Assembly: GCA_965248535.1 (NCBI GenBank) | Contig: CBDFJR010000005.1 | Coordinates: forward strand, 2,176,001 to 2,240,000 | Source: Phormidesmis sp. | GTDB lineage: Bacteria; Cyanobacteriota; Cyanobacteriia; Leptolyngbyales; Leptolyngbyaceae | Direction: 5' to 3' | Length of the DNA stretch: 64,000 bases | Shown here: piece by piece, positions 5,910 through 12,959 of the stretch | Layout of the letters: each line of letters begins with the position of its first letter | Numbering within the stretch: the first letter of the stretch is position 1 | Translations under genes and position numbers: made by a program | The notes under the pieces: generated by a model | The model's input: only the letters and a program-made list of their open reading frames with translations | Told to the model about the DNA's origin: nothing | Databases searched by the model: none

Positions 5910-7208
5910 GTGAAAAAAGTATTAGCAATCATTTTAGGCGGGGGAGCCGGAACTCGCCTCTACCCGTTAACCAAGCAGCGCGCAAAGCCTGCGGTTCCTC
6001 TCGCTGGCAAATATCGTCTGATTGATATCCCGGTTAGTAACTGTATTAATTCAGAAATCTTTAAAATTTACGTTCTGACTCAATTTAACTCTGCTTCTCT
6101 CAACCGACATCTCACAAGAGCCTATAACTTTTCATCTGGGTTTAACGACGGCTTTGTTGAAGTTTTAGCCGCCCAACAAACTCCCGAAAACCCCAACTGG
6201 TTTCAGGGCACTGCTGACGCGGTGCGGCAATATCTCTGGCTGCTGCAAGAATGGGATGTTGATGAATACATCATTCTCTCTGGCGATCACTTATATCGGA
6301 TGGATTATCGCCAGTTTGTGCAGCGTCACCGCGAGACCGGGGCTGATATCACTCTGTCAGTGGTGCCGATGGATGAGCGCCGGGCCTCTGATTTTGGCTT
6401 GATGAAAATCGACCAAGCAGGGCGAGTGATCGACTTCAGCGAAAAGCCCAAAGGCGATGCGCTCAAAGATATGCAGGTCGATACGACCGTTTTAGGGCTG
6501 ACGGCTGATCAGGCGAAAGAAAACCCCTACATTGCCTCTATGGGCATTTATGTTTTTAAGAAAGAGGCCTTGGTCAAACTGCTGCGGCAAGCGCCCGATC
6601 AGACCGATTTTGGTAAAGAAATTATTCCAGCTTCGGCCCTGACCCACAACGTTCAGGCTTTTTTGTTTAACGATTATTGGGCCGATATTGGAACGATCGA
6701 GGCCTTTTATGAGGCTAACTTGGCGCTGACTCAACAGCCCAACCCTCCCTTCAGCTTTTATGATGACAAAGCTCCGATCTATACTCGTCACCGTTTTCTG
6801 CCCCCCAGCAAATATTTTGACTGCAAAATCACCGAGTCGTTAATCGGCGAGGGCTGCATTCTCAAAGACTGCCGCATTAGCCATTCGGTTTTGGGCGTGC
6901 GATCGCGCATTGAGGGCGGAGCCACGATCGAAGACACGTTGATCATGGGGGCTGACTTCTATGAAGACTATGCCGAACGGCAATCAGAACTCGACTGTGA
7001 CAATGCTCAAGTTCCCTTGGGCATTGGCAAAGACTCGGTGATTCGACGGGCGATCATCGACAAAAACGCCCGCATTGGCTGCAACGTTCACATTGTCAAC
7101 AAAGATCGGGTCGAAGAAGCCAATCGAGAGAATCAAGGGTTCTACATTCGCAGTGGCATCGTCGTGGTGTTGAAAAATGCGACGATTCCCGATGGAATGG
7201 TGATTTAG
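5910..7208 (+). CDS. glgC: Glucose-1-phosphate adenylyltransferase
   Basis: [35 protein letters not shown]; likely GTG start at 5910. Confidence 0.97.
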
Positions 7209-7224
7209 AAACGATGACGGCTAT

Positions 7225-7273
7225 AAAAAATGAGAGATGAAGCAGATAGGTTGGTTTCACCTCCCATTTTTTT
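7225..7273. terminator. Bidirectional intrinsic terminator between convergent glgC and aroF
   Basis: AAAAAATGAGAGATGAAGC...GGTTTCACCTCCCATTTTTTT imperfect hairpin with A and T tracts on both sides. Confidence 0.6.
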
Positions 7274-8128
7274 AAGCGATCGCTAACTGGGGGCTTTGAG
7301 CCTCATAGACCTGACGACCGATCGCTTCGGCAACGGGCTTGAGACTGCGGACTAGACTCACCATGTCGTTGAGAGCTAACGCTTGACGGGCATCAGAAAC
7401 AGACTTTTCTGGCTCTGGGTGACACTCAATGATCAGACCGTCGGCACCACACGCGATCGCGCCACGAGATAGATCCGCGATCAGTTCTCGCTTTCCGGCG
7501 GCATGGCTGGGATCGACCATCACAGGTAAATGAGTGATTTGTTTGAGGGCGACGACGGCTCCTAAATCCAGCACGTTGCGAGTGTAGGGGTCAAAGCTGC
7601 GAATGCCTCGCTCGCACAGCACAACATTGGGGTTGCCGTGACTGACGATATATTCGGCGGCCATCACAAACTCCTCGATCGTCGCCGCCAACCCTCGCTT
7701 GAGCAAAATCGGCTTGTTGGCTTGTCCAACGGCTTTGAGCAGATCGAAGTTTTGCATATTGCGGCTGCCGATTTGCAGCATATCGGCATAGGCAGCGATT
7801 TCCTCGATCTGTGAAATGGCCATCACTTCAGTCACGACAGGCATCCCCGTAGCTGGTTGCGAACCTCTGCCAAGATTTCTAGCCCCTCGATGCCCATGCC
7901 CTGAAACGCATAGGGCGACGTGCGCGGCTTATAAACGCCACCTCGCAACGCTTGCACGGGCGCAAACTGAAGGTGACGGGCGACGGTTTCCATTTGCGTC
8001 AGGCTTTCGACGGTGCAGGGGCCGCCGATGACGACGATTTTTTGACCCCCGATCGCCACTCGCTCAGAGAGTTTAACGATCGTGTTCTGATTTGATTGAG
8101 ATTTAGCGACCAATTTTGCATCTTTCAT
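7272..8128 (-). CDS. aroF: DAHP synthase type I-beta, short form without N-terminal ACT domain; split by a frameshift near 7845-7860 (error or recent pseudogene)
   Basis: ORF 7832-8128 (IGGPCTVES, RGGVYKPRTSPYAFQG) and ORF 7272-7844 (QIGSRNMQNF, LKRG, CERGIRSF, DPSH) are contiguous halves; SD GGAG before ATG 8128. Confidence 0.9.
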
Positions 8129-8148
8129 GACCTAGACTCCTAAATAAT

Positions 8149-8178
8149 AAAAAAGCCCGAAACCTTTGGGTTCCGGGC
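8149..8178 (-). terminator. Attenuator terminator 2 (proximal to aroF)
   Basis: GCCCGGAACC-CAAA-GGTTTCGGGC 10-bp stem followed by UUUUUU, about 20 nt upstream of the aroF start. Confidence 0.9.
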
Positions 8179-8202
8179 CTGACGAACATTTGCACGACAG
8201 CT

Positions 8203-8265
8203 TCACCCAGAACTGGTTGGGATAAAAAAATAAAATCTAAATCGCCAGGAATTCAGGTGGAGCAT
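8203..8265 (-). CDS. Aromatic amino acid leader peptide 2 (MLHLNSWRFRFYFFIPTSSG)
   Basis: 20-aa ORF with a W-R-F-R-F-Y-F-F cluster; its 3' end GUUCUGGGU pairs with the 5' arm of terminator 2. Confidence 0.8.
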   Translation of the reverse strand: MLHLNSWRFRFYFFIPTSSG

Positions 8266-8279
8266 CAGAGAAAAAACCG

Positions 8280-8304
8280 AATCAGGACATTTAATCAGGA
8301 CATT
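8280..8304. repeat. 12-bp direct repeat AATCAGGACATT x2
   Basis: Identical copies at 8280-8291 and 8293-8304. Confidence 0.85.
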
Positions 8305-8332
8305 AAAAAACCGCAGAGGTTAGTCTGCGGTT
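8305..8332 (-). terminator. Attenuator terminator 1 (distal)
   Basis: AACCGCAGA-CTAACC-TCTGCGG stem-loop followed by UUUUUU. Confidence 0.88.
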
Positions 8333-8359
8333 CACTGGGGCGCTCACAACGAACGACAT

Positions 8360-8413
8360 TCACCCCAAGTGAACCGCCTCGCGCCAAAAAAAGAAAAACG
8401 TGTTGTGAGACAT
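8360..8413 (-). CDS. Aromatic amino acid leader peptide 1 (MSHNTFFFFWREAVHLG)
   Basis: 17-aa ORF with four consecutive Phe codons then Trp; its 3' end GCGGUUCACUUGGGGUG pairs with CGCCCCAGUGAACCGC, which overlaps the terminator 1 5' arm. Confidence 0.85.
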   Translation of the reverse strand: MSHNTFFFFWREAVHLG

Positions 8414-8445
8414 AAAAGGGTGCCGCTCGAAAACTGATTACTCTG

Positions 8446-8474
8446 AACTTAACAGAGGAACTCGATCGCGTCAA
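8446..8474 (-). promoter_or_regulatory. Sigma70-type promoter for the leader-aroF transcript
   Basis: TTGACG-N17-TAAGTT with extended -10 TGn. Confidence 0.65.
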
Positions 8475-8528
8475 GTACCTTAGATGAGGTTTGAAAAGTA
8501 TCGAAAGTTTCTTCGCTTCGTTGCCGTC

Positions 8529-8584
8529 CCGCCCGTGACTGCAAGTCCGGGCTAACGGGGCGAAACCCGTTTCAACGGGTTGAA
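8529..8584. repeat. REP-like double-hairpin element
   Basis: GCCCGTGACTGCAAGTCCGGGC and AACCCGTTTCAACGGGTT palindromes. Confidence 0.5.
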
Positions 8585-8665
8585 TTCAACTGCTACTAGG
8601 GATGACGCTGGGATTCGGTTGTTTCGCTGCGCCTTCTGAAAGGATACGGGTGTCGAGCAGATATA

Positions 8666-8902
8666 TCATAGATTGACGCGATCGGGAATGGGACTTTGAT
8701 CGCGGGTGAGGTCGAGTTCACCACTGGCAAGCGCTTCAGCGAGGGGAGAATCTTGTAGGAATTCGACAAGACTTTGGTGAGTAGGTTGGGGAGTTGAGGC
8801 TGGATTGGAGGCGGAGAGACTTTCGCTGAGGAGTTGAATGAGCCGCTGTTTTTCTGCGGGTTCAAGACCAAGGAGTTGTTGTTCTAATTCTTGGGTGAGC
8901 AT
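8666..8902 (-). CDS. Small antitoxin-like hypothetical protein
   Basis: ELEQQLLGLEPAEKQRLIQLL and SLVEFLQDSPL...ELDLTRDQS resemble cyanobacterial antitoxin-like small proteins; no toxin gene follows. Confidence 0.55.
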   Translation of the reverse strand: MLTQELEQQLLGLEPAEKQRLIQLLSESLSASNPASTPQPTHQSLVEFLQDSPLAEALASGELDLTRDQSPIPDRVNL

Positions 8903-8946
8903 GGGCGACGGGAATACATATTCACTTTCAGTTTATCGCTTCTGCT

Positions 8947-11900
8947 TCATTTCCATTGATTGCATACGTCGCGCATGGCATCGACCATGCCTCGGATGGC
9001 GGCGGCTCCGCCGAGATGTGCGATCGGGGGATGCAGCGTGGCGAGGTCTTGCATAAGATCGGCGCGGGTGCAGTGGGCAAGGAGGTGAAGGTGGGATTGC
9101 CAGTCGGGATACGGGAGTGTAGCAAGAGAAAGGCGAGGAAGATAGGATCGGAGGGTTGTGGCGCGGGTGAGCTTGTGGATGATGGCATGGATGGCATCAA
9201 GGGCTTGGGGCAGAAACACTTCAGGTAGCTCTTCAGCTAACCCACACAACCCTTCTGCACGCGCTTGCTCATTTTGGAATAGCGACAATATTTCTAGAAG
9301 TGCGGGCAGTAATGCTTCAGGCAATTGCTTAGCTACACCACCATCGCAAAATATATCTCCAAATTCCACATACTTTCGCTCAGTCTGAATCAACAACCAT
9401 AGCGCCTCAAACGCTTCAGTTAAATAAGCTGGGTCAGTTTGAATTAGAGCATAGAGAAACTCTAAAACAGCACGTTTAAACTCATCTTGGACTAATCGCG
9501 CCAATTCTAACCCTTTAGTAAAATAAGTTGAATCAATTTGTGCTAGGGAATGCAATGCCCACGCACGCATGAATTCATCCTGAATTGATCGTGCAGCCGA
9601 TGACAACTGGGCAAGGTCAGCATTGCTAACCTTAGCTAGATCACGCAATGCAGGGGCACGGTCTGTGATTTTAGACCATGCAAAGGCTTGCTCATCCTCA
9701 ATAGACTCGCCGCACTTAATGCTTCTGCAAAATATGTTTCGTCAATTTCCGCTAAGTCAATCAATCTAAGTGTACGGTTGTAGTTGTTCTGTTGTGATCG
9801 AGCCACGCTTAAAGCTTCTGCAAAGCAGATTTCGTCAATTTGGGCTAGGAAAGTGCTTAATATTCCTGCACGATCGGACTCATCCTGAATTAATCGTGCA
9901 GTATTCAATGCTTCCATGGAGTACGTTCTGTCAATTCGAGCTAAGACGCTCAATGCTCTTGCACGATCGGACTTATCCTGAATTAACCGTGCAGCATCCA
10001 ATGCTTCTGCAAAATATGCTCTGTCGATTCGAGCTAAAATGCTCAATGCTCTTGCACGATCGAACTGCATCCGAATTGAGCGGGCAGCATCCGATGCTTC
10101 TGCAAGATATGCTCTGTCGATTCGGACTAGTTTGAAGAGTGCCCTTGCCTGCTTGTCCTCATCGTGAATTGAGAATGCCACGTCCAACAATCTAGCAATA
10201 TCAGCAGTGTTCACTTCGGCTAAGATACTCAGTATCTTCACTTTTCGCATATTCCAAGGCTCAATCAACCTCTCCTTCTCAATTGCAAGAAATGCCGCTA
10301 ATGCTTCTGCAAAATAAGCTGGGTCAATTTTGGCCAAGACACTCAACGCCACCGCGCTCTCATGTTTATTTCTAATTGTTCGTGCTGTTGTCAATGCCTC
10401 AGTAAAATGAGTCGAGTCAGTTTTAGCTAGAGCAGTTAATATCATCGCCCGCCAGTACTCATCTTGAAGAGATCTCGCTGTCTCTGCTGAAAGATAAGTA
10501 TGGTCAATCTCAGCTAAGGTATCCATCACTTCTGAATGAAAGAATGGATGTTGAATTGACCGTACAGCATCTAATGCTTCTTCAAAATATGCGTTATTGA
10601 TTTTAGCTAGCGTACACAATGCTGTTGCACGGGCGGACGCGTTTTGAACTGACCGTACAGCGTCTAATGCTTCTTCAAAATAGGAATTATCAATTTTGGC
10701 TAGATCACTCAATGCCGATGCTCTATGACATTCGTCCTGTATTGATCGTGAGACCTCTATGGTCTCTGGCAAGTAAACTGAGTCAATCTGAGCTAATTTG
10801 TTCAATGATCTTGCGCGATCTCTCACATCTCGAATTGACCGTGCCACCCTCACCGCTTCTAACAGGTAGGCTGAGTCAACCTGGGTTAAGGCAGTCAATG
10901 CCATTGCAATGTTACTCTCATTCCGCAGTGATCGCGTCTTCTTAACCGCAAACCCAAAGATCGCCTTAGGCAAATACGACGCAAGTTTCTCAATCGCCTC
11001 AACAATATTCTCCTCATCCTGCATTTGCTCTACATATGCCCAAGCTTGCTCTGGTGTCCAATACTTACGCTTCACAAACTCTGCCATCATCCCGATCGGT
11101 AGATTCCCCACCAAACTATTCAGCGTTGCTGTAATCAATGCATATCGACACTGCAACACAATCGAGCGAGTATTATCTTGCTCATAACTTTCCTCTGCAA
11201 TTTGCCACCCTCGCTTCACATCCTGTACAAAAATCGCAGGTTGCCCCAGTCGATCGCACGCCTCAAACCAAGCATTCCGCCCCTGCTCATCACTCATCGC
11301 CATCAGCACATGAATCTCATCCTCTCGCCCCGCCTGCTGGAGATGCCACGTCAAATGGCGATGAATATATCCATCATTCGGCAACCGATCCCAGCGATCG
11401 CACTTTTGGCGATAGCGATCCAAGAATTGAGCATGAGCATCCGCAAGCGTTCGGATTGGAGCGCTGAGGGTTGCTTGTTCGATCAATCCCCGCGCCGTAT
11501 CGTGCATCAAATCATGCACCCGATAGGTTAGCTCCCCTTCCAATGTCTCCGTCCCACTGGTCAGAAACGATCGATTCCGCAGAGCAATTAATGCCTTCTT
11601 CGCTTTCAAGGGCGACAACTCCCACAGTGTCACCGCCATCCGCACATCCAGACTCACATCCTCTGGCAACACTCCTAACCACGCAAACTGCCGTAACTGT
11701 TCCGCACTCAACCGCCGCAAACTCAAATTAAAACAAGCCCGCAAACTATACTTGCGCTGCTGATTCTCATCCAGACAATCCCAAGCCTCCGAAGAATCCA
11801 ATACCTCCAACGCTACTGATCGCCGCTCTGTCTCAAACTCCGATCGCAACTCCCCCCAACTCAACCCATCCCGCACCTGATTCGCCGCCAAATCTAACGC

Positions 11901-12959
11901 CAACGGCAAATATCCCAACGACTTCGCAAACGCTTTTACTTCCGATTCCTGTTCCGGTTTCCACTGTCGTTTTAGCTTTTGCCGCACTAGCTCGATCGCT
12001 TCCACTTCCGACATCAAATCCAACAGATGATACTCCGCTCCCTCAATCTGCGCCTCCCGCGTCGTCACCAACACCCGACACGCTGCACCGCCCACCCGAA
12101 AATGCTCCACATGCGCCCCATTCCACACATCATCCACCACCAGCAACATTCGCTTTTCCAGTAGCACCGTCCGCAAATAACTTGAAGCCCATTCCAACGT
12201 CGTCGCCGAATAACTCTCCCGCGACTTATCCAACGTCCGAATCCAATCTCCCAGCAAATTTTGAAGGTCGGGATTCTGTCCCAGCGTCACCCACAAGATC
12301 CCATCTGCAAATCTCGTCTGCACCTCAGCATCTAGCACCAACGCTGTTGCCAACACCGATTTGCCCAATCCGCCTAAACCTGCGATCGCGCTCACCACTA
12401 ATGCCCGATCGTCCGTTGCCAACAGCTTCTGCTTCACCGCATCAAACGCTTTAGGACGCGGCACATAGTTCTCCGGCAACCGCACCCCTAGAGACGGCGC
12501 ACCCACCTTCAGTCCTGATTTCGGGCTTTGCTCTGGTAGAGCCTGCAATTTCGACTTGGGCGATCGCTTACTTTCCCAGAGCTTATCAAACGCTTCGAGA
12601 TTACGACTGATGTGTGTTGAACTTAACGTCAGCGTAAAATCCCACTGCGCCTCACCCTTTGTTTTCACGCGATGGTCATGCAAAATCCCCAGAAAATCCC
12701 GCATCGCCTCCAAGGCTTCCCGCACATTTGCGGTCGTCACAGTTGCCTGTCCGTCTTGATTGGTGACGTGCATCAAAGCTTGCAGTGTCGTCTCGATCGT
12801 CACCTTCTGACTTCCTGCTGCTTCATCCTGCCAGCGAAACTGTAATTTTTTTGAATCGCTGATCTCTCCTACTTTTGTCGCCTCCAAAATCCCCTTCAAC
12901 ACTTGACGGACACGAGCTTGCACGATCGGACCATGGGATTTTTTCTGAGAGCTAGGCAT
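8947..12959 (-). CDS. NLR-like STAND protein: N-terminal domain + NB-ARC + winged helix/helical domain + ~32-aa helical repeats; frameshift near 9708-9712
   Basis: Walker A GLGGLGKS, Walker B LLVVDDVW, GYLPLAL, VHDLM; repeats ALxxARSIQDExxRAxALxxLAxID continue in ORF 8947-9648. Confidence 0.85.

Follow-up and report, generated by a model that had tools for sequence, protein, structure and literature searches.

The window, a 64,000-nucleotide stretch of a Phormidesmis genome, carries on its minus strand a DAHP synthase gene that is preceded by a pair of short open reading frames (ORFs) rich in aromatic codons, each of them followed by a hairpin and a U run. The locus raises the question of whether expression of this gene is governed by translation of its leaders or whether the hairpins and the aromatic ORFs have other explanations. 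From sequence comparison and predicted folds we consider it very probable, at about 0.85, that a tandem pair of ribosome-mediated (leader-peptide) transcription attenuators controls a DAHP synthase without an allosteric domain and that the feature studied here is the proximal member of this pair.

Anatomy of the leader region and of the regulated gene

The proximal leader ORF, MLHLNSWRFRFYFFIPTSSG plus the stop codon TGA, occupies 8203..8265 on the minus strand and comprises 20 codons, with the ATG at 8265-8263 and the TGA at 8205-8203. Its control codons, codons 7 to 14 (8224..8247, minus strand), were read directly as UGG CGA UUU AGA UUU UAU UUU UUU and specify W-R-F-R-F-Y-F-F. Six of these eight residues are aromatic, with four Phe codons, one Trp codon, and one Tyr codon. 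The preliminary description of this DNA had pointed out that this Tyr is the only one in either leader. That is true in the window but does not hold as a design feature, as both leaders carry Tyr in most other cyanobacteria.

Region 2, AGUUCUGGGUG (8204..8214, minus strand), consists of codons 18 to 20 and the first bases of the stop codon and was defined by direct reading and from alignments. In the antiterminator, GUUCUGGGU (8213-8205) pairs at 9 of 9 positions, two G-U pairs included, with GCCCGGAAC (8178-8170). The 3' end of GUUCUGGGU is the U of the leader stop codon, and the antiterminator thus spans the stop. A linker of 26 nt separates GUUCUGGGU from the terminator hairpin (8155..8178, minus strand), which was recognized by the terminator search, in the alignment, and in the fold. 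This hairpin is formed by region 3, GCCCGGAACC (8178-8169), the loop CAAA, and region 4, GGUUUCGGGC (8164-8155). The proximal terminator has 10 bp followed by a U6 tract (8149..8154, minus strand; direct reading and terminator search), although the search scored it at 12 pairs by counting two pairs into the U run. It ends 8 nt 5' of the Shine-Dalgarno sequence of the DAHP synthase gene, AGGAG (8137..8141, minus strand; direct reading), which lies outside the hairpin. Region 3 is common to the antiterminator and the terminator, and the two helices are mutually exclusive. Region 1, CACCUGAAUU (8250..8259, minus strand), covers codons 3 to 6 and is the partner of region 2 in minimum-free-energy folds without a ribosome. 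The leader ORF, its W-R-F-R-F-Y-F-F run, the 9/9 pairing with its G-U pairs, and the 10-bp U6 terminator had all been proposed beforehand, and each proved correct on the minus strand.

The proximal leader ORF was the sole return of a scan of both strands of the 5.03-Mb genome for small ORFs that have a start codon and a terminator no more than 110 nt away and in which at least six of eight residues are aromatic and represent two or more kinds. No clear Shine-Dalgarno sequence precedes either leader, and a Shine-Dalgarno-like motif was present 5' of the ATG in 22 of 83 relatives. A 52-amino-acid plus-strand ORF at 8257-8415 is antisense to both units and was taken as mechanical.

The distal unit lies 95 nt upstream of the proximal unit and is like it in design. 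Its leader ORF, MSHNTFFFFWREAVHLG plus the stop codon (8360..8413, minus strand; direct reading, with homologous leaders in 24 relatives), has the control codons F-F-F-F-W and, in the window, no Tyr codon. The distal antiterminator (8327..8377, minus strand) pairs GCGGUUCACUUGGGG (8377-8363), which abuts the stop, with CCCCAGUGAACCGC (8340-8327) at a fold energy of -28.3 kcal/mol. The distal intrinsic terminator with its U run (8302..8333, minus strand; stem 8333-8308) was identified by the terminator search, the alignment, and a fold of -14.9 kcal/mol. The distal antiterminator greatly exceeds the terminator in stability, and arrival of a ribosome at the stop codon should be a strict requirement for termination in this unit. 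The 7-bp core of the distal antiterminator was 100% paired in 24 sequences, a result equaled by 18 of 500 shuffles; the distal region as a whole folded no better than shuffles (z = -0.48).

Conservation among six genus-level loci starts abruptly, in the alignment, at ACTTGACGC. This genus-level conservation suggests that TTGACG (8474-8469) and TAAGTT (8451-8446), separated by a 17-nt spacer (8446..8474, minus strand), are the promoter of the leader transcript. The -10 element of this candidate is weak, and a consensus promoter scan called no site. Farther upstream, a perfect hairpin, AACCCGUU-UCA-AACGGGUU, is located at 8564-8589 between the candidate promoter and a 78-amino-acid ORF (8666-8902). 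The hairpin was covered in Rfam by a chance-level match only, and the 78-amino-acid ORF had no Pfam match.

The gene behind the two units encodes a type I-beta DAHP synthase with the catalytic core only (7272..8128, minus strand; PF00793 match; ATG at 8128). In this assembly it is split into ORFs at 8128-7832 and 7844-7272 by a frameshift near 7851, whereas the orthologue is a single open frame in relatives. Contigs of two public runs, with 0 other differing letters, are without two letters at 7851 and give one continuous frame, and a second, more diverged variant in the same two runs also has two letters fewer in total. The frameshift is either an assembly error or strain specific. The intact orthologue has 284 amino acids and aligns to positions 67 to 337 of the 338-position family model; because the alignment begins at position 67, the N-terminal regulatory domain is absent. 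The other DAHP synthases of the genome are a 351-amino-acid type I-beta enzyme with a ferredoxin-like domain (PF18152) and a 368-amino-acid AroF/G/H-type enzyme. Upstream in the neighborhood, a 1,107-amino-acid ORF (9636-12959, minus strand) ends in many repeats of about 30 residues (...RA.AL..LA.ID..Y..EAL..ARSIQD...). The neighboring 233-amino-acid ORF (8947-9648, minus strand) consists of similar repeats and had no Pfam match.

A cruder scan of the genome, which sought small ORFs with a high content of any single amino acid and with a terminator and a gene after them, returned 75 candidates. It missed the leaders of the DAHP synthase gene (aroF) because it required a downstream ORF of at least 100 amino acids and the frameshift leaves a first ORF of 98 amino acids. 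One of the 75, a Met/Thr-rich ORF at C5:1957303-1957395, outside the window, was examined further and rejected as a leader: it reads, in another frame, the acidic, GAT-rich tail of a 123-amino-acid ORF, and the terminator belongs to the gene of that ORF. A seven-codon ORF, VPTWGWK, occurs at C2:1031684-1031707 and at C5:592571-592594, followed in both places by a near-identical hairpin, AAGCCCTCC...GGAGGGCTT, and a T run; it is probably part of a small repeated element.

Conservation of the leaders and covariation of the helices

Orthologues of the DAHP synthase gene were found at 25 loci among 41 related genomes, and both leader ORFs were present at 24 of them. At the 25th locus the contig stops inside the proximal unit, with the terminator still visible. 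The preliminary description had made its leader ORF stand or fall with conservation at homologous loci, and the ORF was conserved (24/25). The proximal terminator was followed by a run of at least five T residues in 24 of 24 relatives.

We then built covariance models of the proximal unit (R1) and the distal unit (R2). A protein scan with one genome per species gave 569 relatives, and the models were run on the best 80 of these 569 loci. These 80 are cyanobacterial by record title or are metagenome-assembled genomes and include Leptolyngbya, Nostoc, Calothrix, Microcoleus, Coleofasciculus, Fischerella, and Stenomitos. R1 matched 78 of these best 80 loci, and upstream of the two that it missed only 47 and 102 nt of sequence are available. 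R2 matched 74 of the same 80, with no match in L052, L061, L091, L096, L112, and L114. In the window's own genome, R1 and R2 each matched only the aromatic-leader locus, indicating that neither of the other two DAHP synthases has such a leader. In an evenly sampled set of 151 genomes of the phylum, R1 matched 21, with one match each. Twenty of the 21 matches were directly upstream of the DAHP synthase orthologue; the remaining one (L135, the weakest, E = 8e-4) is false, lying antisense inside an ORF of more than 1,000 amino acids. All R1 matches in this sample fell within the window's own class, and large families of the sample had no R1 match, one of them with 0 of 50.

The two models matched each other's units weakly. 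Twelve loci gave an R2 match over the proximal unit (E = 2e-5 to 9e-4) and four gave an R1 match over the distal unit (E = 0.002 to 0.007), the loci concerned being L056, L069, L073, L076, L078, L079, L081, L089, L100-L102, L105, L108, L110, and L111. These cross-matches could reflect an old tandem duplication or merely common design and base composition.

Several signs of translation were conserved among the relatives. Of 96 distinct sequences, 88 share the aligned position of the stop codon, which is TAA in 54, TGA in 21, and TAG in 13, and region 2 ends on the first U of this codon. An in-frame ATG is found 16 to 25 codons before the stop in 83 of the 88, with a mode of 20 and exactly 20 in 43. 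Across the 88 sequences, the consensus of codons -14 to -7, counted from the stop, is W-F-Y-G-F-Y-F-W, in which seven of eight residues are aromatic. Both TAC and TAT occur at the two Tyr positions (42/27 and 28/25), and F, Y, and W substitute for one another. The C-terminal Ser-Gly (UCY GGG) is conserved and is region 2 itself, while the N-terminal codons vary freely. With six of eight control codons aromatic, a conserved ATG and stop, and DAHP synthase downstream, the proximal ORF has the makeup expected for the leader of a ribosome-mediated attenuator. In eight of the 96 proximal units (L098, L104, L102, L105, L108, L111, L039, and L091) the stop is off the usual aligned position, and the leader reads on for at least one codon. 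In two Calothrix records the run is rearranged to NFYFWFFYWFG and the model scores are low.

The Arg codons interspersed in the run had been suggested to tune ribosome pausing. This suggestion was not borne out. Arg at position -13 was found in only 4 of 88 sequences (CGA, in the window's genus only), and Arg at -11 was found in the window alone (1/88), the usual residue being Gly or Ser. Moreover, CGA is a common codon in this genome, with 23% of Arg codons; AGA makes up 8.5%.

The same alignment bears on whether the conserved peptide (W-F-Y-G-F-Y-F-W...) could, like TnaC, be a nascent arrest peptide and sense free aromatic amino acids inside the ribosomal tunnel rather than charged tRNA. The residue order is unusually constant, down to the Gly or Ser in the middle of the run, and the position of the stop codon is fixed, as such a peptide would have it. 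However, F, Y, and W swap freely at the control positions, two of these positions hold Arg in the window's genus, and the distal and proximal peptides differ from each other. The conservation that follows the aromatic run is explained by RNA pairing, codons -3 to -1 being region 2. Stalling on abundance would, furthermore, turn the biosynthetic gene on under amino-acid excess, the opposite of the direction needed. We therefore judge an arrest peptide to be highly improbable, and sensing of charged tRNA by a translated leader is the reading retained here.

The distance from the leader stop to the ATG of the gene is 74 nt in the window and 73 to 171 nt in relatives. In the Tolypothrix campylonemoides record (L094), the two units are at 351-450 and 493-599 and the gene is at 1201, about 600 nt downstream; an insertion between the attenuators and the gene may account for this. 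The conserved leader ORFs might in principle give rise to small hydrophobic peptides with a function of their own or bring ribosomes to the DAHP synthase gene for re-initiation, and re-initiation has been proposed (PMC4833913) for leader genes 10 to 11 bp from the structural gene. The spacing found here is far from that arrangement, with a terminator between the leader stop and the ATG, and the DAHP synthase gene is provided with a strong AGGAG of its own. Nor is the peptide conserved in its N-terminal third. We consider both of these roles extremely unlikely, and the leaders are better understood as the sensing part of an attenuator.

Both alternative helices covary. In the 96 distinct sequences, the antiterminator had 95.0% of its cells paired, changes on both sides were seen in 17 cells, and none of 500 shuffles was as good; for the terminator the values were 95.2%, 45 cells, and 0 of 500 shuffles. 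The alignment of these 96 sequences (A4) was fitted to the terminator structure. The aligned sequences are related, and these shuffle counts overstate the significance. When the antiterminator partner was slid by one column, at most 68% of cells were paired. An independent MAFFT alignment of 24 sequences gave 94.9% pairing for the terminator and 91.7% for the antiterminator. The double changes in the antiterminator are from U-A to C-G at two pairs. Here region 3 changed from A to G together with a change of region 2 from U to C, while the U of region 4 was kept as a G-U pair, so the compensation is specific to the antiterminator. Pairs with double changes are few in this helix (2 of 8), and by the number of such pairs it was not above shuffles (324/500). 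Thus the anatomy of the unit, its conservation, the fixed positions of its start and stop codons, and the covariation of both helices are direct observations.

These observations also bear on how the hairpins themselves are to be viewed. Hairpins with U runs could be ordinary translation-independent terminators or the 3' ends of small RNAs, with the aromatic ORFs as U-rich by-products. UUU-rich stretches do give Phe in one frame by default, the leaders are without clear Shine-Dalgarno sequences, and terminator-like sites within 7800-9000 were not above shuffles in number (2 versus a mean of 1.5, standard deviation of 1.1). The significance of the unit accordingly comes from its conservation and not from the count of terminator-like sites. 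The frame, however, is kept, with three different stop codons at the aligned stop and the ATG about 20 codons upstream. Codons for Tyr and Trp, which do not consist of U runs, are conserved, with TAC and TAT as synonymous variants; covariation links region 2 to the 5' arm of the terminator; and the element is single in each genome and always 5' of the same gene. Ordinary terminators are thus a very unlikely explanation. The attenuator reading put forward in the preliminary description, of a leader ORF, a stop-spanning antiterminator, and a terminator just 5' of the DAHP synthase gene, was upheld, as the ORF and both helices are conserved.

Folding of the proximal unit and proposed mechanism

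The 151-nt proximal stretch folded with z = -3.08, which none of 200 shuffles equaled. The fold energies of its helices were -18.7 kcal/mol for 3:4 (terminator), -19.9 kcal/mol for 2:3 (antiterminator), and -14.5 kcal/mol for 1:2. We examined the decision point by truncating the transcript between the emergence of region 3 and that of region 4. With a ribosome masked at W7, Y12, or F14, 2:3 was the minimum-energy fold of this truncated transcript, and it was lost only when the ribosome was placed on the stop codon. The dependence on ribosome position is seen in geometry only, that is, in the stop codon lying within region 2 (88/96) and in these masked folds. In the truncated transcript without any ribosome, 2:3 was more stable than 1:2, which suggests that the property of the trp attenuator by which absence of translation leads to termination may be weak or absent here.

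When the complete unit was folded at equilibrium, the terminator won under every ribosome mask. Since the terminator is always favored at equilibrium, the switch must be kinetic, which is beyond what folding can show. The position of the anti-antiterminator 1:2 is not conserved, being long range in the window's genus and a local hairpin around region 2 in other lineages. Region 1 is therefore the least certain part of the unit, because the partner of region 2 varies between lineages.

We infer that the leader is translated, that ribosomes stall in it, that transcripts terminate in vivo, and that starvation is sensed in the following direction. RNA polymerase would start upstream of the distal leader and would have to get past two terminators. 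In each unit a ribosome would translate the short ORF, which has Phe, Tyr, and Trp codons in a row in its middle part. When charged aromatic tRNAs are plentiful, the ribosome would proceed to the stop codon and cover region 2, so that region 3 would pair with region 4 and the GC-rich hairpin and U tract would end the transcript. When an aromatic tRNA is scarce, the ribosome would stall in codons 7 to 14 and leave region 2 free. Free region 2 would pair with region 3 once the latter is made, no terminator would form, and transcription would continue into the DAHP synthase gene. As the two units are in series, their read-through probabilities should multiply.

The proximal unit had been described as integrating Trp, Phe, and Tyr, and this claim stands in part. 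The consensus W-F-Y-G-F-Y-F-W indicates that all three types of residue are under selection in the 88 relatives. In the window itself, Phe outnumbers Trp and Tyr by four codons to one of each, and a member of the genus (L004) has Asn in place of Tyr. The distal gate is Tyr-less, and a shortage of Tyr alone could presumably act only on transcripts leaking through it. Insensitivity to Tyr supply has also been described for aroR of Corynebacterium glutamicum, according to the review PMC11802643.

A wider interpretation can be offered only tentatively, and we hold it to be possible but somewhat less likely than its negation. Cyanobacteria may long have used a duplicated leader-peptide attenuator on a DAHP synthase isozyme without a regulatory domain, with serial gates that multiply to give a steep response and with lineages that shift the weighting of the three amino acids through exchanges among F, Y, and W codons. 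In the window's genus, Tyr would then have been removed from the distal leader and the proximal leader reduced to one Tyr and one Trp, which would make the pair essentially a Phe sensor.

Relation to known attenuators and implications

In the enterobacterial attenuators trpL, pheL-pheA, and pheM-pheST, a short ORF with cognate codons is combined with mutually exclusive antiterminator and terminator helices and a terminator with a U run. The proximal unit is like trpL, pheL, and pheM in its cognate-codon ORF, in its mutually exclusive helices, and in its intrinsic terminator with a U run. It is unlike these systems in that the stop codon is inside region 2, in that region 1 is upstream of the control codons in the window's genus and not over them, and in that 2:3 is more stable than 1:2 at the decision point. 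Its target is also the entry enzyme of the common pathway and not of a terminal branch. The classical enterobacterial leader attenuators are mentioned in passages of PMC11802643 and PMC3082878.

Among described systems, aroR-aroF of C. glutamicum comes closest; in it, a leader with Phe-Tyr-Phe is located 5' of an operon starting with a DAHP synthase gene (Neshat et al. 2014, as summarized in part of the review PMC11802643). According to the same summary, transcription increases when ribosomes stall under Phe limitation, and Tyr supply is without effect (PMC11802643). Both systems have a leader peptide with aromatic codons before DAHP synthase. In contrast to aroR, which belongs to a different phylum and is, as described, a single unit with no Trp codon, the units here are in tandem. 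Likewise, compared with the Phe-Tyr-Phe given for aroR, the control run here has eight codons and a consensus that contains all three aromatic residues.

The leader of Salmonella mgtCBR resembles this region in carrying two short ORFs, each of which is expected to control the formation of alternative stem-loops and the passage of transcription into the coding region (PMC3641672). Unlike mgtCBR, both units here have the same design and the same amino-acid class, with R1 and R2 weakly cross-matching. The two mgtCBR ORFs reportedly respond to different signals and have no relationship to one another.

An Rfam cmscan of 7000-10000 with E values up to 10 gave five matches to unrelated families, all far below their gathering scores, and the best match over the proximal unit was 23S-methyl, with 22.8 bits versus a threshold of 50. 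No leader or cis-regulatory family (Trp, Phe, His, Leu, and Thr leaders, T-box, and others) was thus matched at its gathering score. We found no cyanobacterial aromatic attenuator in the full-text literature, a search with subscription journals and supplements outside its coverage. For attenuation in cyanobacteria, "no reliable data" were reported in 2016 (PMC4833913). The attenuator is apparently undescribed for the cyanobacterial phylum. To our knowledge, this phylum lacks Rho, and few cis-acting amino-acid sensors are known in it. Judged by its sequence, the element is a real, strongly conserved regulatory element of the textbook kind.

If the attenuator reading is true, classical ribosome-sensing attenuation would extend to a major phylum for which we found no report of it. 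The attenuator would explain how an isozyme of the first enzyme without an allosteric domain can be placed under end-product control. The element would also provide a natural part of about 270 nt that is responsive to aromatic amino acids and usable in cyanobacterial engineering. The tandem layout, present at 74 of 80 loci (the best 80 of 569), would offer a natural test case for serial attenuators that sharpen a response.
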